IMG/VR virus record: IMGVR_UViG_3300033463_000003 | Reading direction: 5' to 3' (one strand) | Source of the DNA: a virus | Lineage: Duplodnaviria; Heunggongvirae; Uroviricota; Caudoviricetes | Length of the DNA: 64,000 nucleotides | Shown here: positions 2 to 61,766 of the stretch, in pieces | Numbering within the stretch: the stretch's first letter is position 1 | Layout: each line of letters opens with the position of its first letter | Notes under the pieces: model-generated | What the model was told of the DNA's origin: nothing | Databases searched by the model: none | The model's input: only the letters and a program-made list of their open reading frames with translations | Translations under genes and position numbers: made by a program

Positions 2-1585
2 TTAATTAGTATTATTGCAGAAGATTTTTATATTCCAGATGCATTATTTGTAAAAGAACATCCAGAATCAAAAGCTATTATTGAACGCTATATGGCAGAA
101 ACAGGCACAATTAAAAAAGCTATTGTTGCCCTTATTTTTGCTCTTTGTTTAAAACACCCACAAGAAGTTATTGATGAATTAAAAACATTTATTACTGTTA
201 ACTGTGGTATTTCTAAAAATGAATTAAAAGCAATTATTTCAAGTTGCTTATCCGACCCAGAAATCTTAAAACGTATTGAACTTTGCGTTCGTGGTGCTTT
301 AAGTTATCATGAAGATTTAGAAGAAGGAAAGAAAAAGAAAAAACCATATTCTTCAATGTCAATTACAACTGGTGATATTGCTTATAATATTGCACAATTT
401 AATAAACGCATGGGCACTAATTTCCCAGGTAATGATAATAATAACCCAAGTACTGCTGAAGCACAAGCTGCTGCTGCAAAAGCTAATAATGCAGTTAGCG
501 ATGGTGCAGGTGATGCTTCATCAAGTAGCTCTGCTGGCGAGGGCTCTGGTATAGCCTCTGGTGGTGATGCTGGAGCATCAGCTGGTGAAGGTGCTGGAAT
601 GGGTGAAAGCCTAAAAGAAGGTAAGAAAAAATTTGCAGATGTTTTAATTAAAGTTGCTAAAGAAGCTGCTAAAAAATATAATGAACTTGACCAAGCAGAA
701 AGAGACTGGCTAGAACAAGCTGGAACCTCTATGATTTTTGAAGATCAACCAGAATATTCAGAAATTCTTGACCCATTAAATCATTTTGATATTGAAGATT
801 TAAAAGCTAATGGCATTAATACTGAAGATGAAGATTCAGCTTCTGATGATGCCTTCTGAGCTTTAGATAATAATTTCTGGGAATTTACTAAATCAGCAAC
901 TGAAAGCTTAGAAGCAACTGTTGACCAAGATTTAAATGATAATAGACAACCAGAAAATGAGTTTGATTTAGAATTTGATAAACCACTTGATGCGAATGAA
1001 GTTAGAAAACATGAGGCTGGAATTGAAGAAGATTTGGACCCAATGAAAGCTTGGTATGATGCTGCTCTTGCTATTGCTAAACAAAATAATAAACCTGTTA
1101 TTTATGGTTATTTTTCAAAAGGTAAATATAATCAAGTAGACCCAATTATTTGTGATGATATGATTGCTTGTAATAGAGAATTTATGAAAAAATATCATCC
1201 AAGTGGAAGTATTTTAATTGCATACCCAGATAAACCATTTGTTGAAGAAGTTAATGAAGGCTTAAAAGAAGAGCTTAAAAAAGTTACTACTGAAGAAGAT
1301 TTATTTGACTTATACTATAATAACTGGCTTGACTGCGATGTAGACATTGATGATTTGCATGGTAGTTTTGAAGATGGTTTAAGTGGTAATGAATTTGATG
1401 AAGATGCAGCTTTAGAAATTTATGGCTGGAGTGATGCTTATGATTATCTTGAATCTATGTATGATTTAGGTAAAGATATTCATGATAGAGGTTTACAAGC
1501 AGTAGTTGCAGATGAAATTGCAAATAGAGACCCAAATGATCCAGATGATAAAGAATTACTTGAAGATACAGATATTATAAAATAA
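2..1585 (+). CDS. Acidic multi-domain putative head/internal protein (5' truncated; joins ORFs 92-859 and 1034-1585 through one TGA)
   Basis: Frame is open from base 2. The single TGA at 857-859 reads DAF[W]ALDNNFW in frame with the 1034 ORF, and the gene ends in TAA. Contains an A/G/S linker and ESLKE/ESLE motifs. Confidence 0.75.
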
Positions 1586-1605
1586 AGTATAGAGGAGCAT
1601 ATAAG

Positions 1606-4600
1606 ATGAAAAAAGAATTACATACTTATTACTATATTACAGACCCACATAAATTAGAAGGTACTGTTGTAGCAGCTAATCAAGAAGAGGCATATGTATT
1701 AGCTGAATTAGATTGTGCTGAAAACGGCATTTATGTAGCTGATGAAATTATTACTCTTGAATTATTAGAAAATAAGCAAGAAGAATTAAAAGAAGAAGCA
1801 CATGAAGAAATGCCTAATACTCTTTCAGCTATTTTAGACTATTTAAATAGCGATGAAGATGAAGCTATTGATGGCTATGAAAAAGCTATTGAAAAAATTG
1901 AAAATAAAACAGCAGAACTTAACAATGAACTTGATGCTTTAGAAGAATTAACAGACATTGATAATCCTAAAGATGAAGATTTAGATAGACTCGAAAATGT
2001 TGAAGCTGCTATTGATACACTTGAAAATATTGCTTCAGAGTTAGACCATATTGAAGTTGAAGAAGAAGAGCATAAAGCTGAATTAGAAGATGCTAAAGAT
2101 GATGCTAGACTTGCTAGTATTGATGATTTGAAACTTGAAGAAGCATTAACAGAAGCTATGGCTGATTTAGTTGATGAGGAAATTGAATTTGACCTTGAAG
2201 GTGAAGCTCTTGAAGAAGCAAAACGTAATGTCAAACGTTATTATATTAGACCACAAAATATCTACTGCTCCAATAAAACAGAAATTATTAAAAACTTAAT
2301 TAAACTTGCTGACCAAAACTGCTCTATTTATACTTTAAAAAATTTACCAGATAATAAAGATTTACACTTATTAACTAATAAAGATATTATTTATTACTAT
2401 GATGATGGTATTCTTTATGATAAAAACCACGTTAAAGTAATGGATTATGATTTATATATTAAGCATGAAGAAGAACGTAAAAAATTCCCAGGTGAAAATG
2501 GTGAAGGTGTTTCCGATACTACTTTTGCTGATGAATATGATGATAGAATTACTGATGCTGATTTAGATATGGAAGAAGCATTAGAATTAGATGAAGATAA
2601 AATTTATGTTGGTAAAATTAAGCAAGAAATGGAATTACCATCAGAAATTCACTTACTTTCACAAGATGAAGTTGAACAATTAATTGATTTACTTGAACCT
2701 GAAGAAGAATTTGAAGTCGGCTATGTTAGCCCATTATACTTCTATAAAGAATTATGGGATATCTTGCCAATTTTCAAATGTACTGAAATGTCTGGTTATA
2801 CTGGTGTTGACTTTTCACAAAGTGAAGATAGCGTCCATACTGATGCAGCACAAAGAGTAAAAGATGCACAAGATCAAATTGCTTTGGCTAAAGAAACAGG
2901 CAAACAAGTGTATGTTGGAGCAGATGTTAATTACTCAAATCAAAATAAATTAGTTCATCAATTTAAGAGAACTGATGCTATAGGTAGCAATGTAGTACAA
3001 AGTACAATTTTATTCTACCCAACATCAGAAGCTAAAGTTTGTTATTTCACAAAGCTTCCTGGCCAATCACAGTATCTTAAACTTACAGCTGAACAACTTG
3101 AAAAACATATCTATGATAATTTAGATAAGATTACAAGAAAATTCGATCTAGCAAAAGCTAAAACAAAAGTTTATGATACACTTTATGGTAAATCAGTACA
3201 AGATATTGATAGAGATACCCGTGGTGCTGCAGCATTAGACCCAAAATATATTTATAAATATGAAAGAGATAAACATTCAGTTAGAGCTCTTTATACAACA
3301 CAACTCTATATGTTAAATATTTCAGGAGCTTCTAGACGTGGCCATTCACTTGTTGAGTGTTTAAAAGAAGATTTAGACTTAAATGAAAATACAACTACAG
3401 GCCTCCCAGATTGGACTGAACTTTCTGATAAAGAAGAAGAAAAAGCATTAAATCTTAAATGGGCTGCTAATTTAAACGGTGAAGTTAATGGTATTTCTGG
3501 CGTTAAAGGTGCTCATGTTGATGTTATGTTTAAGTCCGGAAGAAGCTATGTAAAACGTTTTGGTGGTGAGCTTGTTAGAGTTGTCTATAATGATAAGTCT
3601 GAAAGATTAAATGCTAAAATTGCAAAAGATGGCGACTTAAGTAATATTAAAACATATAAATTTGCTGGTTTCTTTGAGCCACAAAAATTCGAAAGCAAAA
3701 CTAGTGGCGAAATAATTACCTACTATTTAGCTACAAAAGATCCAACATTAACATCAAGGCTTGAAACTTATATTGAAGATAAAAAAGATAAAAAAGCAAA
3801 AGCTAAAACTGCTGCTTATAAAGGCGCAAGAGCTGTTAGTAGCTTAACCCCTGAAGAAAAAGCTGAGGCACTTGACTGGTTTGCTAAAAATATAAAGAGT
3901 ATGGATATCACATGCCCAATCGGAAGCCCAACTTATACTGAAGAAGAGGGTGTTGTTGATAGCAGTAACCCAAAAGTCAAGAAAATTACAGATAAATTTA
4001 TTAAAATTAGTAAAGCTTTCCACAATGATTTTGATATTCCAGAAAGTGAACAAGAAGGCTACTTAGATGCAGCTCATAAGGTTCATTTTGGTGTTCGTGA
4101 TGCTGAAAAAGTACATGAAAAAACATTAGAATATTATACTTTCTGGGGATTAACATGTGAAATTGAATTTGCAACAAGCTTAAAAGATGCTAATGGTGTT
4201 GTTTTAGGCTTAATTGAACAAGCCAAGATTGATAGTATCAGAGCAAAGAATTCTGTCACTCCTTGGAAAGAAACAGATACAAGCATTAGTAGTATCTTCT
4301 TATGCTACTCCATTAAAGAATTAGTAAATGATGACTGGAATTTACTTTCAAAGCCTGGACAAGATCCAATTGCCCCAGAAGCAGCAAAAGTCATAGATAA
4401 TACAGAAGAAAACCCATTTGACCAAGAATTTGAGGAAGTTAATGCTTATGGTGAGGCTTTAACTGAAGGCAAGGTTAAAGGTGGAGTTTGCTGCATTTGT
4501 GGTGAAGAAATTGAAGGCTATGGAAATAACCCAGAACCAATTAAGCATGATGGCAGATGCTGTGATGCTTGTAACTTAAAATTTGTTATTCCTGCAAGAT

Positions 4601-6243: not shown

Positions 6244-6253
6244 TGCTAAATTA
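6244..6253 (+). promoter_or_regulatory. Putative late promoter TGCTAAATTA
   Basis: One of 12 copies at gene boundaries; lies after a terminator and before an RBS. Confidence 0.7.
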
Positions 6254-6275
6254 TATGATTATTGAGGCGAATGTA

Positions 6276-8108
6276 ATGACTAATGAATTAATGGAAAAAA
6301 TAGTTAAAATTGGTTCAAAATGGCAAGTTCAGTCAGAAAATGGTAGAAATATGGGAACATATGATACTAAGGCTGAAGCTGAAAAAAGGCTCCAACAAGT
6401 CCATTATTTTAAATATGCTAATGAAGAACTAAATGAAGCAGGTAAAAATATTAGGTCAACCTATAGTGATATTAAAAATATTACTAATAAATTTGATAGC
6501 ACACACATTTCTAAAAATGATATTGTAATAAATCTACCTGATCCAGTTAAAGAACAGTATGTAGCTGAAATAAATGCTTTAATTGATAGTCAAGGCAGGC
6601 TATTAAATTATTTAGATGATACCACTGGTAAACAAATACATCATATTAATTTAAAATCACTAGGTGGTGCAGTTAATGACCTTAATAACTTTATAGTAGT
6701 TTACCCAAAAGATCATCTAAATATACATCGTAATCTTAGTAAAAATTTACATGATTATTTAGAAGCTCATCCGAAAGAAATAGCTAAATATAAAGATGCT
6801 GTAAGAGAAACAAGCAATGCTACATCAGTTTTAGCATTAAATGCAGAGGTACCACAAGAAGAATTTATTCGAGAATTTTATAATATGAGTAAATCTCAAA
6901 GTCAAAATAGGCTTCAAATACAACAAAGTTATTCAGAACGTAGATTAAATGCAAATAATACTATTATTAATGATGCTAATGCTAGAGTATTAATTAATTT
7001 TATAAAAGATCAGGCTGGAAATATTTTACCAGATTATGATCATCCAGTAATTAAGTCTACTCGTCAAGCTGCTGCATTTTTATTAACAGATGAGCCAATT
7101 ACAAAAAATATGGCACCAGAGTTAGTTAAAAAAATAGACAATAAAAGAGTAGATATTAGAGACACTGCAAATAAAAATACTAGTTGAATACAATGAGGTT
7201 TTGCTCCTTTTAATGGGGCAGATGATTTTGAAGGCCAGGCATGACTAATTTTAAATAAAAAAGATTTTGATAATCTTGCTATAACAACAGAATCCCTTTT
7301 AGAAGATACTCGTACTCAATTAATTAGTAAATCAAGAAGTGCAGGTCAATATAAAGATCAAAGTCGTGGTAAAAATAGATTTGAAAGAAAGAAACATTCA
7401 CATATAGCTAATCAAGTAAAAAGCTATAATCAAATTGATATGAATGACTTCTTCAAAAAAGATTTATTAGAAGTTAAAATTCCTGTTACTGGCGAAACAA
7501 ATCAATATATTGTTACTATTAAATTAGATGGCATTTGTACAGAAATTCAAAAAAATATTAAAAATAATAAGAATAAATTAGAATATAGAACAATTATACA
7601 AGCAATTACGAAAGTGTTTAACACAAGTGATGTTTATGTCAAATGCACTTGTGCTGATTTCCAATATCGCTTTAATCACTGGTCAATTGTAAATAATTAT
7701 GGTGTTGATGATAGTGCTCATGACCCAGGACCAGGAAAAGGAATTGCTAATCCAAATAATGATAAAGGTATTGGCTGTAAACATATCCTATTAGTATTAG
7801 CTAACTGCGATTGGATTATGAAAGTTGCGTCGGTCATTAACAACTATATTCACTATGCTGAAGAGCATATGCAAAAACCATTCTTAAAAGTTATATTCCC
7901 GAAACTTTATGGAATTCAAGCTGAAGAAATGGTTGAACAAGATTTAATTGATGATGATAAATACTTGGATTCTTCTGTTGGCCTAATTGATGCTATTAAT
8001 GAGTATGGAAAAACTCGTGGTAGATATAAAGCTGGCACAAATAAAAACCCAGTTACTGGAACAGGCGGTAGGACTAAAAAAGCTGCTGAAGAACCAGAAG
8101 AAGAATAA
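6276..8108 (+). CDS. 610-aa multi-domain protein: small N-terminal module, HNH-like motif, SWIM-like Zn finger domain
   Basis: GAGG RBS before ATG 6276. Three TGAs between 7185 and about 7245 join ORFs 6243-7187 and 7440-8108. Motifs IHHINLKSLGG..N..NFIVV..DHLNIH and CTCADF...GCKH. Confidence 0.7.
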
Positions 8109-8151
8109 TTTATAAATTATTGTATAATATAAAAGGAGAGTGGACGAATAG

Positions 8152-10206
8152 ATGATATCTAACGTTGAAAATATATCTCAAGCATTAAATAACTTATCTG
8201 AAGAAGAAAAGCAGGCTGCTCTTGAAATTTTAAAAGAAATGGCTGCTCAAGGTAAATCAGATCTTTTAGATAGTTTAAAATATAGCGATTTTGCTGAAAT
8301 ACCTGTTGGTATTGAAGAGTTTTTAGATAACGATTTATACTTAGGTAAGGGTATTTGAGAACGTGATGAAGTTACGGGTGAACGTAGATGCACCCTTTTT
8401 CCATATTGACGTGATACACTTAAAAAAGTATTTCCAGATAATTTAACAACCGCCTACAATACATTGATATTGACAGGCTCAATTGGTTTAGGTAAAACTT
8501 TGTGTGCTGTTTTATGCATGCTTTATTTATTATACAGAATGTTATGCTTAAAAGATCCATATTCTTATTATAGAATGATGCCTTCTGATAAGATTTCATT
8601 TTCAATGTTAAATATTACCTTAGATACAGCTCAAGGTGTTGGTTGGGATAAGCTACAGCAGCTAGTTCAAAATTCACCATGATTTTTAGAGCATGGTGCT
8701 ATGAATGCTAGCAGAACAAATCCTATGTGGCAACCAGATAAACATATTGAGCTTATTTTTGGTTCTAGTAATAACCACGTCGTAGGCCGTGCACTATTCT
8801 GCAATTTTACAGATGAAGTTAACTTTGGTATCGGCGGCGATGTTGAAAAGAAAAAAGCAAAGCAAAAGAAACTTATTGCCCAAATCGATGCTCGTATGAA
8901 ATCACGTTTTGGTAAAGGAACATATCTACCAACTCTAAATATTATTGCATCATCTAAAGATACAGAGCAAGCATTCTTAGATTCATATATTAATACTAAG
9001 AGGCAAAATGAAAGTAAAACGACTCTTATTATTGATGAACCACAATGGGTTGTTAGAAATGATAAAGGAACACCAAATGACCCTGGTTCATTCTGGGTTG
9101 CTGTTGGTGGTAAATTCTTAGCTCATGAGCTTCTTCCAGTTGGTGCTGATGAAGCAATGGTTGATAGCTTCCGCGATAAGGGCTATCAAATGCTCAAAGT
9201 CCCACCTATATTCCGTGAAGATTTTGAAACAAACCTAGAACAAGCCTTAATGGATATTGCTGGTTTATCAAGTGCTTCAAGTACAAAATATATTTCTGGT
9301 ATAAGATTAAATCAGGCAAAAGTTGATACATATGTAAATCCATTTACAAAAGATATAATTGAAGTTGGTAATAATCCTGATGATCACTATCAATATGCTA
9401 ACTTCTTCGATTTATCTGCAGTAAGTGGTGATGACTTAGCAAAACCACTATTTATTCATCTTGATATGTCGTTATCAGGGGACAAAACTGGTATTGCTGG
9501 AGTCTGAATTACTGGAAAGCGACCAACACGTGAAGGTGAAGAAGCATCCAGGGAATTACAATATAAACTAGCATTTTCTGTATCAGTTAAAGCACCTAAG
9601 GGTTTCCAAGTTAGCTTTGAAAAAAATAGAAACTTTATTAGATGATTACGTGATAGAGGATTTACTATTAAGGGTATTTCATCTGATACCTTCCAATCAG
9701 CACAAATTCAACAAGATTTAAAAAGTGATGGATTTGATACACAAATTATATCTGTTGACCGTGTTGACACTCAAAGTAAGATTTGTATACCATACCATTA
9801 TTTACAGTCAGCTATTTATGAACGACGTATACAAATATATAAAAAATGTGATTTATTAACAGATGAATTAATTGGCCTTGAGCGACTATCAAATGGTAAA
9901 ATTGACCACACACCTGATGGAATTAACTCAAAGGACCAAGCTGACGCAGTGTGTGGTGCCCTATATCTGGCTAGTAAGTTTGCTGAAGAATACGCCTATG
10001 ATTATGGTGAAAGCTTAGAAGCAACAGTAGATGCAAATACTGAACTTACTGAAGAAGATAGAAGAAAACAGATGATTGCAGATTGACAGACTGAATTGGC
10101 TAAAATATATATGGCCGAACAGAAAGCAATTGATGCAGAAACGGCTAAGAAAAAAGCCGATTATGAGTATTATAAGGACCTAAGTGATGGTATTATAATT
10201 ATATAA
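8152..10206 (+). CDS. terL: Terminase large subunit (684 aa)
   Basis: Six in-frame TGAs (8356, 8407, 8680, 9505, 9643, 10084). Walker A GSIGLGKT, Walker B FTDE, nuclease motifs IHLDMS..GD and KDQADAVCGA. Directly upstream of the portal. Confidence 0.92.
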
Positions 10207-10222
10207 AGAATAGGAGAATACT

Positions 10223-12163
10223 ATGGCAAATACAAAACCAAAAAATACCAAAAGTAAAAGCCCATTAGTTGGAAATCAAGCAAAACCAACAGTATTAGAC
10301 TCTACAACAAAATTAGATATTGATACCAACAAAGTATTTATTGATAATATTATTGATGCTGGTATTAATGGCGGTTTGAATTTAGGAGCATTAGAAAACT
10401 TTACCTCTATTTCAAATAACAGAGACCAAATTTATACGTTGATTGACACTATGGCAGCCGACTCTTCTGTTTCAGCTATTGTTAGAACTTATGCTGAAGA
10501 AGTTTGTGAAACCAGTGATAATGGCCATGTTGTCTGGTGTGAATCTCAAGATCCAAAAGTTAGTAAGTTTATTAATTACTTATTAAATGTTATGAATGTT
10601 GATAAAAATATTTATAACTGGACCTATAACTTAATTAAATATGGTGATGTTTATCTAAGATTATACCGTGAATCTGACTATGAAGATAAGCTTTTCAAAA
10701 AAGATAATATTGGTAAAGCTGATATGGGTAGAAAATTACATGAAGGTGCTGAAGATGTAAATGAAAGTGTTACATTAAATATGCATACAGCAAATGACCC
10801 ATATTCATACTATGTTGAAATGGTTCCAGATCCAAGCACAATGTTTGAATTAACTAAATATGGTAAAACATATGGCTACATTGAAACACCAAATGCAGAC
10901 ATTCAACAAAATTATCTTCAAACAATGCAAACAGAAACTCAAAACTATTTAAGTTATAGAATGAAATCGTCTGATGTTAATGTTTATCAAGCTGATGATT
11001 TTGTACATGCTTGCTTAGAAGATAATGTTTCAAGATATCCAGAAACTGTAGAAATATTTACAAACCAAGATGATTACACTAATTCTAAAAATGCATTAAC
11101 ATATAAAGTTAGACGTGGTAAATCACTTCTTTATGACTCATATAAAATCTGGCGTGAAAAACAATTACTTGAAAATGCTGCACTATTAAATAGAATTACA
11201 AGATCAAGTATTGTTAGAAATATTCAAGTTGAAGTTGGAAACATGCCAAAAGAGCAAGTCCAACTAACATTAAGAAGAATTAAAGAATTATTTGAACAAA
11301 AATCAAGTGTCAATGTTGGAAATGGCATGACAGAATATACTAACCCAGGTGCCATTGAAAATAATATCTTTACTGCTACACACAATGGTCAAGGTGCTAT
11401 TACAGTAAATAGTGTCGGTGGTGATGTTGATGTTAAAAACCTTGCTGACTTAGACTGGTGGAATAATAAATTCTATTCATCTTATGGCATTCCAAAACAA
11501 TACTTTGGCTGGACAGATGATAGCACAGGTTTCAATGGTGGCTCTTCATTAACAATTTTATCAAGTGTATTTGCTAAAGGCGTTAAAAGAGTACAAAATG
11601 CTATTCTTCAAGCAATTACCGATAGTATTAATTTAATTTTAGTTAATAAAGGACTTAAAGCATACCTTAATAACTTTGTTCTTAAAATGCGTGCCCCATT
11701 AACTCAAGAAGAAGTTGACTATCGTTCAAATCTTACTGATAGAATTAATGCAATTAGTAACTTACAAAGCTTATTCACTGATGTTGAAGATAAAGTTAGA
11801 AGATTAGAAATCTTAAAATCTTTAGTTGCTACATTAAACTATGGTGATGATATTATTGAAGAAATAGAAAAAGAAATTGAAGCTGCAAAGCAAGCTAAGA
11901 AAGAAAAAGCTGAAAAAGAGGCAGAAGAAGCTAAAGCTGCTGAAGCTGAAGCTGCTAGCGGTGAAGCAACAGAAACAACTGAAGAAGCACCTGCTGAAGA
12001 AAGCGATGAAGAGCTTGACTTAGGCATGGCTGAAATTGCTACAGAAGGCATTAAAGAAAAAACAGGTGAAATCTTATTAGAAGATACAATTGTTGAAAGT
12101 GATGATGACCTTCCAACTCCAGAAGAAGTTAATGAAAAAATTGACTTTTCTAAAAATAAATAG
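10223..12163 (+). CDS. Portal protein (T4 gp20-like)
   Basis: Motifs W..NLIKYGDVYL, GKSLL...KIWREKQLLE.A.LL.RITRS, VEVGNMPK, DLDWWNNKFYSSYGIPK. Sits between terL and the protease. Confidence 0.9.
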   Translation: MANTKPKNTKSKSPLVGNQAKPTVLDSTTKLDIDTNKVFIDNIIDAGINGGLNLGALENFTSISNNRDQIYTLIDTMAADSSVSAIVRTYAEEVCETSDNGHVVWCESQDPKVSKFINYLLNVMNVDKNIYNWTYNLIKYGDVYLRLYRESDYEDKLFKKDNIGKADMGRKLHEGAEDVNESVTLNMHTANDPYSYYVEMVPDPSTMFELTKYGKTYGYIETPNADIQQNYLQTMQTETQNYLSYRMKSSDVNVYQADDFVHACLEDNVSRYPETVEIFTNQDDYTNSKNALTYKVRRGKSLLYDSYKIWREKQLLENAALLNRITRSSIVRNIQVEVGNMPKEQVQLTLRRIKELFEQKSSVNVGNGMTEYTNPGAIENNIFTATHNGQGAITVNSVGGDVDVKNLADLDWWNNKFYSSYGIPKQYFGWTDDSTGFNGGSSLTILSSVFAKGVKRVQNAILQAITDSINLILVNKGLKAYLNNFVLKMRAPLTQEEVDYRSNLTDRINAISNLQSLFTDVEDKVRRLEILKSLVATLNYGDDIIEEIEKEIEAAKQAKKEKAEKEAEEAKAAEAEAASGEATETTEEAPAEESDEELDLGMAEIATEGIKEKTGEILLEDTIVESDDDLPTPEEVNEKIDFSKNK

Positions 12164-12190
12164 TAGATAATTTGAAAGGAAATACTAATT

Positions 12191-48760: not shown

Positions 48761-48762
48761 TT

Positions 48763-49584: not shown

Positions 49585-51762
49585 ATGGCTATTTCCTATG
49601 ATAATATAAAAACTGGCGTCTATGCAATTAATAGTAATAATATTTCTGTTTTTCCATGTGCTTACAGAGGCGCTAATATTAACAACAATAATCCATTTGA
49701 CCCAGAAGCAAAATTAAATACAGAAAGAAACTTAATTAATCTAGCTGCTCCAAAAACAAACTCCAAATATATTGAAAGCTGGAAAGATAATAAACTTCAA
49801 TTTGTTTTAGGTGGCTATCATTTTATTGTTGATTCAGAGGGTGGTTCTTTAGGCCCAAGTGGTACAACAATAAGATATGTTGCTATTAGATTAACTCCTG
49901 TTACTTTAATTGGCACTAAAACTACCCCTATCCTTGCAAATATTAAAAGTTTAGCTACATGTGAAAGTAATACTAATACTGCTTATACATATGTTCTTGA
50001 TGAAGTAAACAATGATATTTACTATTTCTACGGTTTATATTTCTTAACAAATGAGCCAACACAAGAAGATAGATATTATGACTATCTTGAATTACCAGCA
50101 AGTATGAGCTCTTGGGAAAGTCATGCAAGTAGATTTGGAATTAAATATAAAGATGTTCAAAGTAAAAAATCTGTTTGTTCTATTACTGGTGATTTAATCC
50201 AAGGCAGTGAGGCCCATTCTATTGTTAGTATTTATGGTGATACTGATTCAGATATTAACGTAAATACTGCTACTGGAAAAAATTCAGTAGCATTTGGTGT
50301 TAATACTACAGCTGGAGCAACTGGTGCATTTGCAGAGGGTAAAAATACAAATGCTAGTACTGACTATACACATGCTGAGGGTGGTTATACTTTAGTTGGT
50401 TCAGATTGAGGCCATGCTGAAGGTTTTAATACCTCAATTACAAAGCTTTCAACATCAGTTGATTATCCACATGCAGCACATACCGAAGGCCTTAATACTA
50501 AAGCACATGGTATTGGTGCACACGCTGAAGGCGGTACTGATGATGTTCCTGATAATTTACAGCCAGATGAAAATGCAGAGTTTACTATTGCTGAAGGTAA
50601 CTATTCACATGCAGAAGGCACTAAAACATATGCTAGTAATACTGCTGCACATAGTGAAGGTGATTCTACAACTGCTTCTGGCGAAGCTAGCCATGCTGAA
50701 GGTTATAGTACTAATGCTGAGGGCCCAGGATCACATGCAGAAGGCGGAAATACAATTGCCTCAAATTCATATACACATGCCGAAGGAAATAATACAGCTG
50801 CTTCTGGCTTATACTCACACGCTGAAGGTTTTTGTGATAATGCAGCTATTAAAATAGAAGGCCAAGCACAAGGACAAGCATCCCACACAGAAGGATATAA
50901 TAATAGAGCTTATGGTAACTATGCTCATGCTGAAGGTAGCTATAACAAAGCTTATACTTATGCTAGCCATGCTGAAGGTGAATCTACAATAGCCGGTGCA
51001 AGTGCAAATGATAGCAATAGCAGATATGCTCATGCAGAAGGCTTCCATACAAAAGCTATGGGACAAGCAGCTCATGCAGAGGGTGGTGATGCTACTGCTG
51101 GATCTGGACAAACACAAAATTATACAATAGCAGCTGGTGCTTACTCACATGCTGAAGGTAATAATACAAAAGCAGATGGTACTGGTACACATGCTGAAGG
51201 GCAAAATACATTAGCAGAAGGTAATGCAGCTCACAGTGAAGGTTACACAACAATTGCTGGCTATATTAATAATGGTACACATTATGGCAACTATTCACAT
51301 GCTGAAGGCTATTATACTAAGGCTCTTGGTGATGGGGCACATGCTGAAGGCGAAGGTAATGGCACTAATAAAGGAATTGCTTCTGGTAGAGCTTCTCATA
51401 GTGAAGGTTATCAAACTTTAGCATCAGGAGCTTACTCACATGCAGAAGGAAATCAAACTATAGCACAAGGTGTTTCAACCCATGTTTTTGGTGAATTTAA
51501 TATAGCTGATGAAACTGGCGGCCGTCCAAGGGGTAATAATTATAGTAGTTATGTTGAAGTTGTCGGTAATGGAACTGCTAGTAATGCTAAGAAAAATGCT
51601 AGAACTCTTGACTGGGATGGAAATGAAATATTAGCAAATAACTTAATGGTCAAAAATCAAGTAAAATTTCATAATAAAACATTTGATTCTTATAATATGA
51701 CTCCTGAAGCTACTATAGAATATGATGCAACACGACAAGTAATAAAATTTAAATTCAATTAA
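49585..51762 (+). CDS. Tail fibre protein A2 with YadA-head-like (S/A)HAEG repeats, 725 aa
   Basis: A single TGA at 50407 joins the ORFs. About 20 HAEG/HSEG/HTEG repeats with roughly 14-aa period. Confidence 0.8.
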
Positions 51763-51791
51763 TTATATATAAAAAGGAAAGGTAATTTTTA

Positions 51792-54700
51792 ATGAGTCTA
51801 CAAATTTGGCTTCCATTAAATAATGATATAAAAAATTATGGCACAGACCATAATGTTGTTTTTAGCAATAGAGTTGAAGCAACATCTATTTCTGGTGGTA
51901 AAGTAACTAAAAACTGCTACTATTTTACTCCTGAGGGGCATGACCGTGGTACTGACTATGGCCTATATACTACAAACTCTGGTTCTTTAGCCACATATTT
52001 TAATGATCACTCATGGACAATGGCTTTTTGAATTAAAACAGGTGTTAGTATACAAAGTGATGTTTTTTGTATTAGTGGTCCAGACTCAGAAAAAAACTAT
52101 GAAACAAGATGCTATATTGCTGGCGAAGCTGATGTTGGTAGATTTGTTTTTGAAGTTAAAGATGGAAACACATATAGGTACCCTAGCACAGATGATATAG
52201 CAGTTAATGACAGTAATTGGCACCATATTACTATTGCATATGACTATAATAAAAATAAATTTTATTGCTACTGTGATGGAGTTTTAAAAACGGCTCCTCA
52301 ACTTACTAATGGTACATTTAATAAAAATATTACTGGCATAAGCATTGGTAGAAATTATGCTGGTAATATATGGTTTGATGGTTTCATTAATGATTTCAGA
52401 ATTTATGACCATGCTTTGTCATCAGAAGAAGTACTAGAATTATCACAAGGTTTGGTTGCTCATTATTCTTTTAACTGGGAAGAGTTTTATCAACCAATTG
52501 AATATATTGAAAGTACTGGTACTCAATATATTGATACTGATATTAAATTTAATACAGGAAATACTTATGAATTAAGATCAAAAATAGAGTTTGATAATGT
52601 CACTGAACCAAACCAAATTATTGGCTATGATGGTCACGCTGGAAATGGTATTGGAACATCCACTAACACTTGATGGTTAGATAATGCTGCTAGTGTTTCT
52701 TGTAGTACCAATACTATTTATGATATAATTTGGACTCGTAGTGATACTAGCTGAACAAGAACAATAAATGGAACAAGCTATTCTGGAAGTGCTCAAATTG
52801 GCTCACAAACATATAATATCCCAATTTATTTATTTGCAACACGTAAACCAGATGCAACACCAGCATATAGTATTGGCTATTGGTGCTATATGAAAATGTA
52901 TTATTGCAAACTTTATGAAAATAATACTATTGTTCGTGATTTTATTCCTGTAATAAGAAAAATAGACCACAAACCAGGACTTTTTGACTTAGTAGAAAAT
53001 AAATTCTATGGCAATGATGGTACTGGTGAATTTAAATACCCAAATTCTAATGCTGAATATGAATTTTTAGAATATATTGAATCAGGTGACCACCAATATA
53101 TAGATACTGGCTGGATACCTAATTTTGATGTTAGTTGAAAAGTTGAAGCAGTTGTAAGCATTCCAGATAATAGATATAGATATTGTATTGTATCAAATGC
53201 TAATGCACAGACTGCTACTGCTAATGAAAAAGAAGTCAGCCTAGAAATTAATGATGCTAATAATAGTTCTGAACCAAATGTAATTTGTGATGGCCGCCCA
53301 AGATTCTACATAAATGGTGGTGATACTCAAGGATATGGTATTGCTCTGGTTCCACCAGGTGGCTCGTCAACAATAACTAACAATAAAAAAGCTAATGTTG
53401 AGTACTCATATAACGCATCTACACATGATTGCTATGTAAGTTACCGTAATCTTGATGGAAGTGGTGAAAGTTCAAATAGTGTATCTAAAACATTTTCTGG
53501 GCAGTCACAATCTAGCACAATGCTTTTATTCATAGATAGAAAAAAACGTTATGATGTTTTTAATCATTCTCTTAGAATATATAGCTGTAAAATAACAGAA
53601 AACGGTAAAGTAGTTAGAGACTATGTTCCAGCAAGAAGAAAATCAGATGATAAAACTGGAATGTTTGATATGGTACATAGTGAATTTGCTAATTCAACTA
53701 GTGGTTTTACTACGCCTACTGATTACACTACACCGACTGACTATAAGTTTATTGACTATATTGAAACAAGTGGTACACAATATATTGATACCGGTTTTAA
53801 TCCATATAATAAAAACACTACTGTTGAATTAGATGCCCAAGTATTAAATGTTACTAGCTCACAAAATTTATATCAATTTTTTGGTTGTTTTGACCAAATT
53901 GTTCGTTTCCATATTGGCCTTTATAATAATGGAGCTGGTTTCCACCCAGGCATAGGAAGTGCATATGATACTAATGCTTATAACTATGATACTGACAGAC
54001 ATAAATTTAGTCTAATTAGTAACAGTGAAGAAAGAGCATTTTATGTAGATGGCATTTCAAAATGAACAACAACCAATACTGCTACACTACCAAATCTAAA
54101 TGTGTATATTGGCGCTGGTAATTGAAGCGGAACTGCAACAAGTGATACTCACTGAGGCTATACAGGCAGTTCTAGAATTTATGGCTGTAAAATTTGGAAT
54201 GATACTTCATTAGCTCATAATTTTATTCCAGCAATTAGGCTTAATGATAATAAACCTGGATTATATGATTTAGTTAGTAATAGCTTTAAACCAAACCTAG
54301 GTGATGGTGAATTTGATTCACCAGCTTTATATCACCCAGTAGATTATATTGCTTCAACTGGAACACAATATATTGATACTGGATATGCTTATAATAATAG
54401 TAATGATAATGCTAGAATTGTTGTTGATTGGTCTGCTATTGACCTATCAAATGGAAATTACTTTGAATATCGTGTTGGTGGAGCTCAAAGTGACAGTCGT
54501 TCAATGGTTTTATATGGTACACCATCAACATCAACAGAATTAAGATTAGGTGTTGGATCAGATGTTGGTAGTACTTCAGGTGATATTGCACTTAAAGATG
54601 CCAACAACAATGACATTAAAATACTTAAAGGCACAAGATATTTAATTGATGTTACAGCAAAAAATAAAAATATTGGTGGAACATTAAATGGAAGTACAAT

Positions 54701-56915
54701 TAGCGGCACATATCCTGGAACTGTTGGTAGCACAGCAAATTATTATATATTTGCTAATAATGAAAATGGCACTGTTGGATATAATGGTAGAGTAAAAATT
54801 TATAAATATCAATTATATGATAATGGCACTTTAGTAAGAGACTTTATTCCTGTAGTTAGAATATATGATAATAAGCCCGGCCTTTGGGAAAAAGTAGAAG
54901 GTAAATTTTATACTAACCAAGGAACAGGGGAATTTATTTGGAGTAGCTCTATTGATAGTCATGGTACAACTAGTAATGGTACATTATATGTAGATAGACA
55001 AAAGTTAACTGCTAGCTATCTTGGCTATGGAAACTGGCGCTCTGGGCTTGCTTGTAGAAATAAATATAGTAAATGCTCTACTGGTTTTACTGTCTATGAT
55101 ACTGTTAGTCATGTTATGGCCAACTTATGTACATCAAATAATTTTAGTGATAATAATAATGAGCTTTGAAAGTCTGGTTATGGAATTTATGCTGGTGGCA
55201 GCTCTCAGTGGATATATTATGCTGATTTTGGTGAGTGTCAGACAATAAATGATAGCAATAATAACCCAATTTCATATCAAGCTGGTGATAGACTTAAAAT
55301 TATACTAAATAATAACAAAGTCTATTACTACAAAAATGATCAAATAATACGTACAGTAAATAATACACATGGAGATCTTTATCCTGTGCTTTTATGCACC
55401 ACTGATGCTATAAATAATTACTTAGATATTGCTTTAACAACACTTCCAAGCCCAGTAGATGTAATAAAACCAATAAAAGATAATAGTGGCTATAATAATG
55501 ATATATCTGCATTTACCCCAGATTTAACAACAAGTAATGATACAGCTTTAGGAAATCAAAGCTTAGTATTTGATGAAACGAACTACCTTAAAAGTAGCTT
55601 AGATAGCTCATTTATTAAAGATAAGCTTACAACAAATATTTTAGTTTATAAAAATGATTGAAGCAATAATGTTAGTGAACAAATTATAGCTTGCTCAAAA
55701 GATAATACAATTGGAGCAACCTATAATGGTTGAAGCTTTGCTATTGGTTCCAATTCAGCAAGTGAAACAGGAACTGGCACATATTTAAAATTTGTAGTTG
55801 ATGCAGGAGCTGCTCATGCACAAGCAGCAAAACTAGACATATCTAGCTTAACATCAGGCTGGCATATGTTTACAGGAACATATGATTCTTTTATGGGCAC
55901 AGGCAACACAACAGGAAATTCATATGTTAAATTATATATTGATGGAAATCTTGCCGATACCGATATAATATCAAGTGCTCCAGCAATGCCAATTAACTAT
56001 GTTTCATCACATAATGTAACTATTGGTGCTAGATATAATAGAACTAATTATACAGTTACTGATTACTTTAATGGAAAAATTGCAGATGTTAAAATTTGGG
56101 CAACAACTTTATCAGCAGAAGATATTAAAGACCTATATGAAACAAAAGCAAAGATATATAATAACAATATTTTTGCTGCTAATAATATAAAAGCTATTGA
56201 CCAAGAGGCTATTAAAACATTTGTACCTGAACGTATAGCTGGTCATGGTAGTGGTGTAGTACTTAGTAAGCTTGGTGAAAACTGATATGAAGTGCTTAAA
56301 CCTGCTAACCTTAAATTTGGTGGCATTCAAATTCCTTGAAGATACCCTGATAGAGATGACGGAACACCTATTAACTTTACTGCTGGCCATTATTATAAGC
56401 TAAGTTTTGAAACATTACAAAGCTATAGCAGCGATTACTCAGAGATATGTAAATATATTCGTGGACACTCTAATGGTTTTACTACTATTGGAATTTATAT
56501 TGATGGACAAAAAGCTATAAATGATCTTTGGCATGTTACTAATAACTTAAACCCAACAGGTATTAATTTAAAACTTGAACGTTTATATGCAAGATGGAAA
56601 CACTATGATGTATACTTATTATATAATGCTAATTCGCCGGATGGTAATAATGGTCTATATATTCAACCAGAAAGAGGTAATACAGAAGCTCCTGCAAGTA
56701 ATACCCAGTATAGAAATATAGAACTTACTGACTATGGAACTACTGAGCCAATATTTAAAGAGTCAGAAGTAGCAACAATAACTTCTGAGCTTAAAGTAGA
56801 TAATGTTGCTTCACTACAATGAATTCAAACAACTACAGAAGGTTCACCAAATAAAAATTCAGTATATGTTGGTAAGAATAGAACATTAGTAGCCGCAGAT
56901 ATAAAAGAAATATAA
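51792..56915 (+). CDS. Tail adhesin B2, 1707 aa: LamG-like domains and 4 YIESTGTQYIDTG-type repeats
   Basis: All sub-ORFs lie in one frame, and the gaps contain only TGA. Ends TAA 56913-56915. Paralogous to 45296. Confidence 0.8.
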
Positions 56916-56927
56916 ACTAAGCTGACG

Positions 56928-57733
56928 ACTATATATAAAGAAAGCTGGGAACAAAAAAATTCCTGGCTTTTTATTTTATTCACTTTCCTCCCACTAACTA
57001 TATATAAAAAGAAGAGAAAAGTATTTGTTAGTTAATATATATAATGGAGCTATATAAAGGAAAGAGTATATATTAAAAAAAGAAAGAGTAATTAGATATA
57101 TAGTAATTATAAGTAAAGAAAGCATACTATATATAAGAGGGGAAGAGGTGAACTTATATATAGGAAACACAGGGGAAGCTATATATAAGAAGAATAAGGG
57201 AAAAATGACTTACAGAATAGAGCTTAAAATGCTATATAGGAAGAATAGGCAAAAGCAGGAAAAAAGGCCTACTTACTATATATAAGTAAGTAGAGGCTAG
57301 GGTGGCTTTTTTGGCGAAGTTACAGATTTTTTCGTTTTTGTTTTTTGGAATATTAGCTAAAATAAATGAAGGATGTAAAAAGTCAGTGGCGGAGCTATAC
57401 CCTCTTTAAGCCTTCAACACCTAGTATATGCTCGTTAAAGCTGCTGTTCACATATCACCATTACCTTGCTTTAGGGCTGGGTAATTTTTTTTATAAGCTG
57501 AATTTTTTTATAATAAGCCAGGAAGGAAAGCTAAACCCACTAAGCTTTTGTTCACTAGAGCCTGGGCCAGAAAAGTTTTTGTCCTTAGAGTCCCAAGAAA
57601 AATTCTACAAGCTTAGGACAATTAGCTGCTGGCCCACCACTCGCTTCTATATATATATGTATTCTATCTATATGCATTATCCTATATATACTTACTACTA
57701 CTAAAAATATATTCAACTTATTTTTTTATATAG
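56928..57733. repeat. Non-coding region with dispersed CTATATA(TA) repeats and a palindrome
   Basis: About 10 TATATA-core copies in purine-rich context at 56928-57290, a few in pyrimidine-rich context at 57646-57733, and the hairpin ctacttact-atatata-agtaagtag at 57269-57293. Confidence 0.6.
56941..56980 (+). terminator. Rho-independent terminator
   Basis: aaagctgggaa...ttcctggcttt plus T-rich tail. Confidence 0.65.
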
Positions 57734-57764
57734 TCTCGGGAAGAAAAACTATTTGACCTTCTTC

Positions 57765-57774
57765 TGCTAAATTA
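57765..57774 (+). promoter_or_regulatory. Putative late promoter TGCTAAATTA
   Basis: Motif copy (GCTAAATTATACGAGG, identical to the 30408 context). Confidence 0.65.
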
Positions 57775-57872
57775 TACGAGGCCCAGGGATAAAAAGCTAG
57801 ACACAACATCTTACGGCCAGGTCTAGGAGAGATAGCTTTTTTGTCCAGTGAGCTCCAGTGAAAATTTTTGGT

Positions 57873-58256
57873 ATGAAGATGAATTTAACAGAAAAGATCG
57901 AAGGTACTTGTGATAACGGTATGACTTTAACACTAAGCGATTCGGACTTCCACACGGCCGATGCAGCTTTTGTGTATGACCATATGAACGATGCTAAGAC
58001 CATACTGAGTAATACAATGTCAGACCTATCACCGGAAAACATGGTAGAAAAATTTAAACTCATTATTATAACTACACTCTTCTTGGTTTGCTTTAAGGCG
58101 CCGGAAAATACGATCAAAGCTTTCAAGGGCCTTATTGAACTTTTTAGAGTACCAGAAAAAGAATTAAAAGAAATTATCCATGAAGTATTAGAGGACAGGG
58201 AAATTCTTACTAGCTTAAATAGATGTGTCCGCGAAGTACTCAACGTTAAAAAATAG
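57873..58256 (+). CDS. Hypothetical protein, paralog of the N-terminal domain of CDS 2-1585
   Basis: Shared pattern DF...DA.FV..H...K.I....M and C.K.P...I...K..I...ELK.II...L.D.EIL.....CVR..L. Start uncertain. Confidence 0.7.
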   Translation: MKMNLTEKIEGTCDNGMTLTLSDSDFHTADAAFVYDHMNDAKTILSNTMSDLSPENMVEKFKLIIITTLFLVCFKAPENTIKAFKGLIELFRVPEKELKEIIHEVLEDREILTSLNRCVREVLNVKK

Positions 58257-58270
58257 AAAGGGAGTAAACT

Positions 58271-58639
58271 ATGGCAGTATTAAATTCAACATTAGTAAAT
58301 GGTAATCTTAATGTAACAGGAACAGTATCAGCTTCAGGCTATACAACAACCTCTGATAAAAGATTAAAAGAAAACATCAAAGAGTTCAAACCAGAAGCAA
58401 CTATTTTAAACTTACCTATTTACATCTATGACTATAAAGAGGGACTAAAAGCTCAAGTAGGCTGCCTCGCCCAGGATTTACAAGAGTTATTCCCAGAGCT
58501 TGTAGTGGAAAATGAAAATGGATTCCTTAGTATTCAAGAGTCTAAGTTAGTATATCCACTATTATTAGAGCTTAAACGCCAACAAGAGGAAATCGAAGCC
58601 TTAAAAACTGAAATTTCGAGCCTAAAAAGCCAAATTTAG
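58271..58639 (+). CDS. Short tail fibre protein C2 with a peptidase S74-like chaperone
   Basis: MAVLNSTLVNG matches MAQLNSTTVHG of C1. Motif TSDKRLKENI...GCLAQDLQE. Confidence 0.8.
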   Translation: MAVLNSTLVNGNLNVTGTVSASGYTTTSDKRLKENIKEFKPEATILNLPIYIYDYKEGLKAQVGCLAQDLQELFPELVVENENGFLSIQESKLVYPLLLELKRQQEEIEALKTEISSLKSQI

Positions 58640-59125
58640 TGAAAAATAAGCTGAAAATGGCCAAATTAGGAAAATTAGTTTTTTTGCTAGGTCAAATTTG
58701 GAAAGTTTCATTTTCACCTTATGGCTAATTAGGGAAATTTGGAAATTTAGGTTTTTACATAATGTATATGTAGCTTAACACACTATATAGATCTGAAATT
58801 AGTGAAATTTGGAAAATTTAGAATTTCACTAATTTTTTTATTAAAGCTAATTTGGGAAATTTCATTATGCTACATTTACCTAAAAACTTATCAAATGTAG
58901 TTTAATAAAAAAGCAAACCTGGAATCAGCCAAATTTGCCTAATTTTCGGAATTTCGTAAATTTGCTTATTTTGGGGCTTTTTATTCCTGGTAAGATAAAA
59001 TACCTACTATGTGGCTAAAATGCGATGTGGCTTGTTTTTGGAGCTTTATTTCACGTTTTAACAACATATGTATAATTGCATTTTTACCTTGACCACGAAA
59101 CTGTCCAAATTTGCCCAATTTCGTT
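58630..59125. repeat. Non-coding region with degenerate AAATT(T/A)GG / CCAAATTT repeats
   Basis: More than 10 degenerate copies, with orientation tending to switch around 58870-58900. Confidence 0.5.
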
Positions 59126-59139
59126 TCCATCTTACTTAC

Positions 59140-59168
59140 ATTATACTATACAATTTTTTATCTGTAAA
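59140..59168 (-). promoter_or_regulatory. Sigma-A/70-type promoter on the minus strand
   Basis: Reverse complement reads TTTACA-17 nt-TATAAT. Confidence 0.6.
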
Positions 59169-59170
59169 CT

Positions 59171-59210
59171 TTTAATAATTTAATAATTTAATGATTTAAT
59201 AATTTATTAA
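59171..59210. repeat. 8-bp tandem repeat (TTTAATAA x5)
   Basis: tttaataa tttaataa tttaatga tttaataa tttattaa. Confidence 0.75.
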
Positions 59211-59229
59211 AAAATAGCTAAAAAAACTA

Positions 59230-59269
59230 TTTACAACTATTTACTTTTGTGGTATAATAAAGGTATAAT
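59230..59269 (+). promoter_or_regulatory. Tandem sigma-A/70-type promoters
   Basis: TTTACA-17-(TGG)TATAAT at 59230-59258 and TTTACT-18-TATAAT at 59240-59269. Confidence 0.65.
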
Positions 59270-59299
59270 GGGGAGTGTTTTTTTATAAAAAAAACGACT

Positions 59300-59363
59300 T
59301 TAATAAATTAATAATTTAATGTTTTAATAATTTAATAAACTAATAAATTAATAATTCATTAAA
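59300..59363. repeat. 8-bp tandem repeat (TTAATAAW x8)
   Basis: ttaataaa ttaataat ttaatgtt ttaataat ttaataaa ctaataaa ttaataat tcattaaa. Confidence 0.75.
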
Positions 59364-59711
59364 ACTACTAAATACTATATTACCTACCAGAACTAAATAA
59401 TTCAATTTTTTTTAGTAATTATAGTTGAACGGAGTTCAACATGCCGTTAGGCATTATTTAGTTATACTTTTCTTTTTATATAATTTTTCTTTTACAAGAA
59501 AAATAAATGATAAAAGCTTTATATATAAAAGCATAGTAATAATAAAGAAGCTTTATATGTGCGCGCGCGTATATATTTTAATGTTTTTAATGTTTTATTA
59601 GAAAAATAATTCAATAAATCATTAAATTATTAAAAAATTAACAATTTTTTAATAATAAAGGCTGTATAATATTATAGATGAAGTGTTTTAGTTATATTAG
59701 GAGATTTAGAT

Positions 59712-60023
59712 ATGGCGAAAGAATCACAAACAAATCAATGAGTTGCAATTAAATGCCCACATTGCGGTTATGAGTATATTCCAGCAGAGATCTTCTTTCC
59801 AGATCAATTGCTAGGTAATGCAAAAACAGTAATTAAAGATGCATTAGGTAAAATTCTTTATGTGGAATGAAAACCTGATGAAGAACCAGCATTAACAGAA
59901 AAATGGGTTTGCGATAATTGTGGGGAAACATTTAAAGTAACAGCTAGCTTTTCATTTAAAACAGAAAAGGAAGTTGCAGAGTTAGATTTTAAGAACCAAT
60001 CAGTAAGCTTGTTAGATGATTAA
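59712..60023 (+). CDS. Zn-ribbon protein (103 aa; absent from the ORF track)
   Basis: AGGAG RBS, two TGAs, CPHC...CDNC. Confidence 0.75.
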
Positions 60024-60059
60024 CACTTACTTTTTTCTTTTTTAGCGAGGTATTAGCAT

Positions 60060-61766
60060 ATGATTAGGGTTCAGGAAACAATACCATTAAAAGTGTCTGG
60101 GTTATCCAGCTTTTTAGTATACTCCCAATACAATCAAGAGCTAATTAATCTGATTAAGTCATTAGATACTGCATACTTCCACAAGAAACTTACTGCTTGG
60201 GAGATTCCAGTAACATCTTTATGCAAATTCCTCGATGCAGCTACATTCCTGGATAATATTGAACTCACTTTACTAGAAGATAGTGAAGTAGCCCCTGGTG
60301 CGCAGCCAAATTTGGTAAATTCCGAAATTTCAAATTTTAGAGTTAAGCCTTTTGAACACCAGATCGATGGAATTAACTTTTTACTACAACATCCTAAAGC
60401 ACTATTACTTGATAGCATGGGTGTTGGAAAGAGTAATCAGATTATTTGAACTGCTGAAACATTACATAGAAGAGGTCTGATCGATCACTGTTTAATTATT
60501 TGTGGTGTTAATAGTGTAAAGCAGAACTGGAAAAAAGAAATTCAGAAATTTAGTACCGAGTCATGTATTGTGATCGGTGAAAAGATGAAGAAGAATGGGG
60601 AGGTATCTGCTACACCACTTTCTATTAGTGAAAGAGTGGAACAATTATCTAGACCTATAGATGAATTCTTCGTGATCATAAATGTTGAGTCACTCCGCGA
60701 TGATCGGATCATAAATGCACTAACTAAGAGCTCAGTGAATAAATTTGGATTGATAGCTGTAGATGAAATACATAGGGTTGCAACAAAGAGTTCCCAACAA
60801 GGAGCCAACTTACTTAAGCTAACATCTGAATTTAAGATCGCTGCTACTGGAACTTTACTAACAAACTCACCGATCTCATGTTATGTTCCATTAGCCTGGA
60901 CTGAAAATGATCATGCAATACTTACTAACTTCAAATCACAATACTGTACATTTGGTGGATTTAACAACTCTCAAGTGATCGGATACAAGAATTTAGATCT
61001 GTTAAAAGAAGAATTAGATAGTTGTAGTATTAGAAGAACTCTTGCCGATGTACGTGATGATATGCCAAAGAAAACTGTTTACACTGAATTAGTAGAACTT
61101 TCTGAGGAACATAGGAAATTTTACGATGCTATTAAAGAAGGTGTAAAAGAAGAGGCTGATAAGATCCAATTAAATTCTTCTAACTTACTTGCACTAACCA
61201 CTAGACTAAGACAAGCAACAGCCTGCCCAGGGATCCTAACTACACAAGATATTATGTCCAGTAAAATAGAAAGATGTGTGGAACTTGTAGAGGATTTAGT
61301 AGAGCAAGGTGAAAAGGTAGTAGTCATGTCCAATTTCAAAGAGCCTCTCTATAAGTTAGCTACATTATTGGAAAAATATAAACCTTTAGTGAATACAGGT
61401 GACTTCCCTGATGAGACGATCAGCCGTAATGTAGACCAGTTCCAGAATGACACTAACACTAAAGTATTCTTAGGAACTCATGCTAGAGTGGGAACCGGAT
61501 TAACATTAAATGCAGCTGCTTACTTAATCTGCTTAGATACACCTTTCACTTACAGTAGTTTTGCACAAAGCTGTGATCGAATTTACAGGGTCAACAATAC
61601 TAGACCAGCATTTATTACTGTACTTGTCGGCAAAGATACGATTGATGAGCGTGTAGCCGAGATCATTGAAACTAAAAAAGACCTTAGTGATTATGTTGTG
61701 GATAACATCGATAATAGCTTAAGTTCACTTAAAGATGAACTTCTACAAATTATTAAAAATCTTTAA
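60060..61766 (+). CDS. SNF2-family helicase/ATPase (568 aa)
   Basis: TGA at 60447. Motifs DSMGVGKS, DEIH, ATGT, GTGLTLNAA, QSCDRIYR. Confidence 0.92.

Follow-up and report, generated by a model that had tools for sequence, protein, structure and literature searches.

Reading frames and genes of the window

The stretch of DNA analyzed here, referred to as the window, comprises 64,000 nucleotides (nt) of the IMG/VR virus record IMGVR_UViG_3300033463_000003 (Caudoviricetes). An earlier note, made from the sequence alone, had described it as part of a T4-like phage that uses TGA as a tryptophan (Trp) codon (code 4). The window has a GC content of 31.6% and all its convincing genes are located on the plus strand. 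The comparison of coding densities that the note had proposed gave a clear difference: under code 11, open reading frames (ORFs) of at least 200 amino acids (aa) occupy 66% of the window, and reading TGA as a sense codon raises this share to 88%. A gain like this was not obtained when TAG was read as sense, in which case the coverage was only 67%. Under code 4 the plus strand is organized in 46 co-directional ORFs (2..61766), with short gaps or small overlaps between them. Together these ORFs contain 79 in-frame TGA codons, spread over 22 of the 46, and 147 TGG codons; the other 24 ORFs have no TGA, and the window contains mostly late genes. Reading frames are broken by TGA alone and never by TAA or TAG, and all 45 complete ORFs terminate with TAA or TAG, exactly as had been claimed. 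When TGA is counted as Trp, this amino acid makes up ∼1.1% of the residues, versus 0.74% from TGG alone. One of the sites, the TGA at residue 7 of ORF 20827-23367, is doubtful; the true ATG start may be located at 20854, downstream of this codon.

Gene identities were obtained from PHROG, Pfam and tblastn searches. The gene for the large terminase subunit, terL (8152..10206; 6 TGA, 4 TGG), was identified via tblastn (30-35% identity to annotated terL genes, E 9e-61), and its protein gave no match in PDB sequences and, with the thresholds applied, none in PHROGs or Pfam. It is followed by genes for the portal protein (10223..12163; phrog_213, E 1.7e-33; 0 TGA, 6 TGG), a prohead protease/scaffold protein (12930..14879; phrog_207; 0 TGA) and the major capsid protein (MCP; 14900..16273; 0 TGA, 4 TGG). 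Recoding is most extensive, with 17 TGA versus 3 TGG codons, in the gene at 16395..19223, which encodes a 942-aa fusion of an FrhB-like domain, a polysaccharide pyruvyl transferase and a C-terminal extension. Further downstream are located the genes for a neck or head-tail adaptor protein (20109..20834; phrog_211; 2 TGA), a possible tail sheath stabiliser/terminator (26085..26762; 3 TGA) recognized by a weak match to phrog_227 (E 0.009), and, identified by PHROG matches, the tail sheath (26856..28511) and the tail tube (28532..29125), two genes in which none of the 12 Trp codons is TGA. The baseplate genes, also assigned by PHROG, encode a hub protein that lacks Trp codons of either kind (29415..30203), a gp25-like wedge subunit (34709..35038; 0 TGA) and another wedge subunit (37274..37663; 1 TGA). 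Two fibre-like proteins contain LamG domains according to Pfam, one encoded at 45296..48760 (12 TGA, 11 TGG) and a large one at 51792..56915 (13 TGA, 19 TGG). A DNA helicase gene (60060..61766; phrog_62, E 4e-93) contains a single TGA and falls apart into ORFs of 129 aa and 398 aa under code 11, and a DNA methyltransferase gene is located at 62286..62861. Most likely, the window thus corresponds to the structural-gene block and the start of the replication block of an uncultured myovirus of ∼273 kb; according to a protein database entry, the contig carrying it has a size of 273,303 bp. An exact search with 50 bases gave no match in IMG/VR or in the JGI metagenome collection. The statement in the earlier note that essential genes are broken by TGA holds for terL, the neck, the wedge and the helicase genes, but not for the hub and gp25-like genes, which have no TGA; the "tail terminator" does contain three, but is only weakly identified.

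The description of the phage as T4-like was correct as far as architecture is concerned. PHROG matches were found for a gp23-type capsid, a gp20-type portal, a gp21-type protease and a contractile tail with gp25/gp53-type wedge, and the order portal, prohead protease, gp23-type capsid, sheath, tube and baseplate is the same in T4-type myoviruses and in phages SP-15, vB_BceM-HSE3 and LIS04. The relationship itself is distant, however. The MCP shares 27-30% identity with its counterparts in the Bacillus phages SP-15 and vB_BceM-HSE3, in Listeria phage LIS04 and in a Streptococcus phage, and 23-24% with those of T4-type phages, and a megablast search of 20 kb of the window against GenBank phages gave no match. 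The SP-15 group and the T4-type phages are therefore very distant kin and, whereas these cultured relatives use the standard code, the window phage is recoded. What these comparisons show is an architecture shared with T4-type phages, from which membership in the family Straboviridae sensu stricto does not follow.

A short sequence, GCTAAATTA, is present in 12 copies, all on the plus strand (6245..63011), versus 2.6 expected, and none of 100 shuffled sequences reached 12. Each of the copies, which start at positions 6245, 12739, 12835, 16357, 20063, 26785, 29230, 30408, 37248, 49508, 57766 and 63003, is located directly upstream of a gene. Given this position and its overrepresentation, GCTAAATTA is likely to be a phage promoter element. 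It is present upstream of TGA-free genes (scaffold and capsid, sheath) as well as of the most TGA-rich gene, the one starting at 16395.

The amino acid specified by TGA

The proteins encoded by the window were aligned to 67 IMG/VR loci that had been retrieved with the MCP (57-87% identity; contigs up to 233 kb), and for each codon of the window its counterpart in the aligned locus was read. Opposite the TGA codons of the window, at 484 aligned positions in total, we found TGG 225 times, TGA 97 times, Phe 57 times and Tyr 50 times. Cys was found about once, and Gly, which the earlier note had named among the residues that would speak against Trp, was found at none of the 484 positions. The window TGG codons gave an equal profile, with 870 Trp, 87 TGA, 71 Phe and 64 Tyr. 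At the level of individual genes, five of the six TGA sites of terL are mainly TGG in relatives, and two of the TGA sites of gene 26085..26762 are TGG in 20-21 relatives.

Another comparison was based on 65 distant homologues (24-40% identity) of the 942-aa enzyme. In the columns corresponding to TGA, Trp was present at 250 of 605 residues, versus a background of 1.3%. Residue 212, encoded by TGA, is Trp in all 65 homologues, and residue 155, also encoded by TGA, is Trp in 64 of them. Trp, Phe and Tyr dominate the TGA columns, and Gly does not belong to the 12 commonest residues. The two comparisons are independent of each other, and both show that TGA specifies Trp in the window phage. The motifs from which the earlier note had deduced that TGA falls where Trp is expected could also be located: GDF[W]G on the TGA at 17028, which corresponds to residue 212 mentioned above, SF[W]I on the TGA at 45509, T[W]YH on the TGA at 45713 and KVEYGTTATP[W] on the TGA at 46418. 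The WAE motif is present near the C-termini of both the pyruvyl-transferase fusion (19152-19223), where its Trp is encoded by the TGA at 19152, and the protein encoded by the adjoining gene (19941-20021), where it is encoded by the TGG at 19941.

These results also bear on other meanings of the codon. The program ARAGORN tags the UCA-anticodon tRNAs of relatives (see below) as "SeC" on the basis of their anticodon, which could be taken in favour of selenocysteine. However, these tRNAs have Trp-type anticodon arms and a G at position 73, one of them forms an ordinary 74-nt cloverleaf that does not have the architecture of a selenocysteine tRNA, and 79 sites in 22 genes are far too many for selenoproteins. 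The near absence of Cys and the absence of Gly from the TGA-aligned positions in relatives, together with the predominance of Trp, Phe and Tyr in the distant homologues, argue equally against Gly (code 25), Cys or mere leaky read-through, and we consider it extremely improbable that any of these accounts for the TGA codons. For the same reason, the lack of Gly at TGA positions, a code 25 phage of Absconditabacteria/Gracilibacteria was ruled out. A dual role of TGA as stop and sense codon was rejected as well: TGAs close to the ends of genes (residue 504 of 507 in ORF 4659-6182; residue 920 of 942 in ORF 16395-19223) match sense codons in relatives.

The fragmentation of terL, the helicase gene and other essential genes under code 11 might also be taken to mean that the TGAs are genuine stops in a region that is decayed, pseudogenised or mis-assembled. 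This view can hardly be correct. The frames are interrupted by only one of the three stop codons, dozens of separately assembled relatives have either TGG or TGA at the same sites, and the same TGA pattern is observed in ∼20 related contigs.

TGA usage, related phages and decoding genes

The earlier note had left two options: either the host uses code 4, or the phage recodes in a standard-code host. A Mycoplasma- or Spiroplasma-like host, or another bacterium with UGA = Trp whose code the phage would share, is compatible with the low GC content of the window and with the observation that TGA terminates no gene. The codon usage argues against it. Thus, the ratio TGA/(TGA+TGG) is 0.35 in the window, versus 0.83-0.94 for the A-ending codon in the AAA, GAA, CAA, TTA and AGA pairs. 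A long-standing code-4 system with such a bias towards A-ending codons should strongly prefer TGA, and therefore the share of 35% speaks for recoding in a standard-code host. In addition, the distribution of TGA among the genes of the window is not random (permutation p = 5e-5), which a shared host code does not account for either. None of the 23 Trp codons in the genes for MCP, portal, protease, sheath and tube is TGA, versus 79 of 203 elsewhere (Fisher p = 3.6e-5). The exclusion of TGA from the MCP gene extends to the relatives: in 19 recoded relatives none of the 61 Trp codons of this gene is TGA, as compared to 45% in terL and 67% in the glycan enzyme gene. These observations too argue against a code-4 host, and the exclusion from the MCP gene suggests that suppression of TGA is costly, or leaky, in competition with release factor 2 (RF2).

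The context of the Trp codons differs as well. The base 3′ of TGA is A in 51% of the cases in the window, versus 30% for TGG, and the corresponding values are 41% and 27% in the complete 232-kb recoded relative G001; C is rarer after TGA (pooled chi-square p = 3e-8). This excess of A may be due to an influence of codon context on suppression, or to a bias in dinucleotide usage.

Both codes are found among the close relatives. About 20 loci are recoded: they have many in-frame TGAs, and their ORF coverage increases by 10-30 points under code 4. More than 20 loci use the standard code, with 0-1 in-frame TGA in the 4,000-5,000 codons aligned and no difference in coverage between the two codes, and their MCPs are 69-75% identical. 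That such sister phages are on the standard code argues further against a host which itself uses code 4. In G001, the number of TGA codons (476) is similar to that of TGG codons (506) overall, and TGA is scarce in blocks of small genes, for instance at 192-200 kb, with 1 TGA versus 38 TGG. Among the standard-code relatives (L027, L032, L036, L062 and others), TGA terminates 0-2 of 16-19 genes and most genes end with TAA, which is the "stop-codon divestment" described for kin of recoded phages. Another relative, G006 (L022; 201 kb, 50% GC), encodes release factor 1 (RF1) and a tRNA-Trp(CCA), and has 4 in-frame TGA versus 31 TGG codons; it may represent an intermediate or weakly recoded state.

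In MCP trees, whether the root is placed at the midpoint or by means of Bacillus and Listeria phages as outgroups, the recoded lineages are arranged around a nested standard-code clade, and at least three code changes are required. With the outgroup root, the recoded lineages are basal and paraphyletic to the main standard-code clade. This topology would be expected if recoding were ancestral in this clade of jumbo phages and a nested subclade had reverted to the standard code while amassing a large tRNA set of its own. However, the terL tree has another topology, with one or two code changes, that conflicts with the MCP trees, and the outgroup branches are very long. We therefore regard such a return as unlikely; if true, it would mean that recoding was ancestral and that a change of the genetic code was later reversed. 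As for the tRNA sets themselves, 17-33 tRNA matches were obtained for the standard-code genomes G002, G003 and G004, including tRNA-Trp(CCA), versus 6-8 for the complete recoded genomes G001 and G005.

Genes that could decode TGA were found in the recoded relatives. G001 contains a code-change module (174676-179060, corresponding to L114:14676-19060) consisting of a split tRNA-Trp(UCA) gene and genes for a tryptophanyl-tRNA synthetase (TrpRS) and RF1. In the tRNA gene (174676-175039), position 34 is followed by an intron of 290 nt. When the exons are joined they form a 74-nt cloverleaf with anticodon UCA, discriminator base G73 and an encoded CCA, and the gene is followed by a terminator hairpin. 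In its D and anticodon arms, this tRNA hardly differs from the tRNA-Trp(CCA) of G006. The genes for TrpRS (TIGR00233; 324 bits versus a cut-off of 177) and RF1 (472 bits versus a cut-off of 400; PET and GGQ motifs) are located ∼2 kb downstream of the tRNA gene and neither of them contains TGA. The presence in recoded relatives of their own tRNA-Trp(UCA), TrpRS and RF1, with protein genes that are all free of TGA, is another argument against a host that already reads UGA as Trp. RF1 and TrpRS were absent from both standard-code genomes searched, and tRNA-Trp(CCA) was present in all three standard-code genomes with tRNAs listed.

The split tRNA(UCA) gene of G001 is missed by ARAGORN without intron mode, and is labeled as Ala with intron mode. 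The base preceding its intron is U and the last base of the intron is G, which is compatible with group I although no proof of it. Searches with the Rfam model for group I introns (RF00028) were negative for five related records and, up to an E value of 10, for the G001 tRNA locus. A scan of IMG/VR with the 15-base exon-intron junction resulted in 20 matches, of which that in G001 alone is a tRNA and the rest are due to chance, and a BLAST search with the G001 tRNA locus against partial recoded relatives yielded nothing useful. The recoded genome G005 contains an unsplit tRNA(UCA) gene (L105:2900-2995, minus strand). The acceptor stem of this tRNA (A1-U72, G73) resembles that of tRNA-Trp, and its variable region forms a hairpin of ∼22 nt. 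The difference between the unsplit gene of G005 and the split one of G001 hints at independent origins of these suppressor tRNAs.

G001 contains two further intron-split tRNA genes with introns of ∼600 nt (129413-130082 and 205621-206269), one of which reads Asn(GUU). It also contains a 61-nt tRNA-like element without anticodon arm (206885-206945), adjoining a sub-threshold c-di-GMP-I-like match, and a tmRNA gene (209640-210045).

Host, proposed decoding and relation to known recoded phages

Several indirect hints favour a Firmicute as host. By MCP and terL, the nearest cultured kin of the window phage are phages of Bacillus, Listeria and Streptococcus. Among the matches listed for the RF1 of G001, a single homologue is named, the RF1 of Intestinibacter (57% identity). 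Among six bins of metagenome-assembled genomes (MAGs) with related contigs, five are Firmicutes, and the related contigs include two recoded ones. A search for prfB in the five Firmicutes bins gave a match above the cut-off in four of them and only a fragment in the fifth. This fifth bin bears on the possibility of a code-4 host; it is a "Bacilli bacterium" MAG of 1.6 Mb and 30% GC with which one recoded relative was binned, and the prfB fragment could be taken in favour of that possibility. The full prfB in the other four bins argues against it, and a phage of 230-270 kb would be very large for a host genome of ∼1 Mb. Taking these data together with the codon usage, the standard-code sister phages and the decoding genes of the relatives, we consider it very unlikely that the host itself uses code 4.

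Instead, because TGA is underused and unevenly spread, because sister phages use the standard code and because recoded relatives carry decoder genes, a standard-code host is favoured, and we estimate at roughly 80% the probability that the window phage reads TGA as a second Trp codon by means of a suppressor tRNA within such a host. Of the two options left by the earlier note, it is the second one that is favoured by the A-ending codon bias, the uneven TGA usage, the standard-code sisters, and the tRNA-Trp(UCA), TrpRS and RF1 of relatives. Accordingly worded, the proposal is as follows. The TGA-free genes, which would include early genes and the code-change genes, would be translated first by the unmodified machinery of a host using the standard code. 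The phage would supply its own UGA-reading tRNA-Trp (anticodon UCA), probably encoded by its own genome and charged by the TrpRS of either the host or the phage. Some relatives would also bring TrpRS and RF1, and an RF1 of phage origin may make termination at TAA and TAG more efficient; the window phage itself may do without RF1. Once expressed, the suppressor tRNA would compete with the host RF2, allowing the TGA-containing genes to be completed. Genes required before the switch would have been kept free of TGA, and so would the MCP gene, whose product is made in the largest amount. The MCP gene would avoid TGA because each suppression event competes with RF2, at a cost that scales with copy number. 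In this way, recoding would serve to time or throttle gene expression.

Several observations weigh against this proposal. As had been claimed earlier, the window itself contains neither a suppressor tRNA nor a release factor gene: ARAGORN, Rfam and our own scan for split tRNAs detected no tRNA in it, and a profile search detected no RF or TrpRS gene. Among the 120 best matches of the G001 RF1 listed, none is located on the 273,303-bp contig. Within the late block, an early/late switch alone is inadequate, because GCTAAATTA precedes TGA-free and TGA-rich genes alike. Finally, co-binning is a weak indication of a host.

TGA-recoded phages of this type have been published. Borges et al. described the TGA-recoded Jade (∼200 kb) and Agate phages from animal and human guts (bioRxiv 10.1101/2021.08.26.457843; later Nat Microbiol 2022). 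The "code change module" of Jade, consisting of a suppressor tRNA, TrpRS and RF1, is written in the standard code, and Firmicutes hosts were predicted. Standard-code and recoded members share clades, and standard-code kin show a depletion of the reassigned codon among their stops. TGA suppressor tRNAs were detected in only 35% of the code-4 genomes surveyed, and avoidance of TGA in the MCP is not mentioned in that paper, in which the word "capsid" occurs 0 times (10.1101/2021.08.26.457843).

The clade of the window phage agrees with the published description of the Jade phages in each of its features. Shared features are a large genome (∼200 kb or more) of gut or rumen origin, TGA in structural genes, a mixed-code clade, a module of tRNA, TrpRS and RF1, found here in the relative G001, and predicted Firmicutes hosts. 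On the other hand, the contig carrying the window is larger, with 273 kb, and the suppressor tRNA gene of G001 is split by an intron and missed by standard tRNA finders. As is proposed for the window phage, TGA-recoded Agate phages and TAG/TGA-recoded crAss-like and Lak phages have a stop codon reassigned in late genes, infect standard-code hosts and encode suppressor tRNAs. Their standard-code relatives seldom end genes with the reassigned codon, as is also seen here. They differ in belonging to other lineages with other genome sizes, crAss-like and Lak phages infect Bacteroidetes, and the code has been proven by proteomics in the case of code 15 (Peters et al. 2022, PMC9523058), whereas here it is read from DNA sequence. 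Phages of Mycoplasma and Spiroplasma, whose hosts use code 4, also have TGA as Trp codon and no gene ending with TGA. Unlike in those phages, TGA is here a minority Trp codon distributed by gene class, and the relatives carry their own decoding machinery.

One practical consequence is that gene callers using code 11 would fragment 22 genes of the window, including those for the terminase and the helicase; contigs of this kind need annotation with code 4. Another consequence concerns the published surveys. Intron-split tRNAs would be missed by the method of Borges et al., and suppressors may therefore be undercounted; a suppressor tRNA hidden by an intron, as in G001, may explain why such tRNAs were detected in only about one third of code-4 phages. 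The window phage is a further, clean example of large gut or rumen phages of ordinary bacteria that rewrite a stop codon. Beyond the published picture, TGA remains a minority Trp codon in this phage despite an extreme bias towards A-ending codons, and it is fully excluded from the MCP gene in all recoded relatives.

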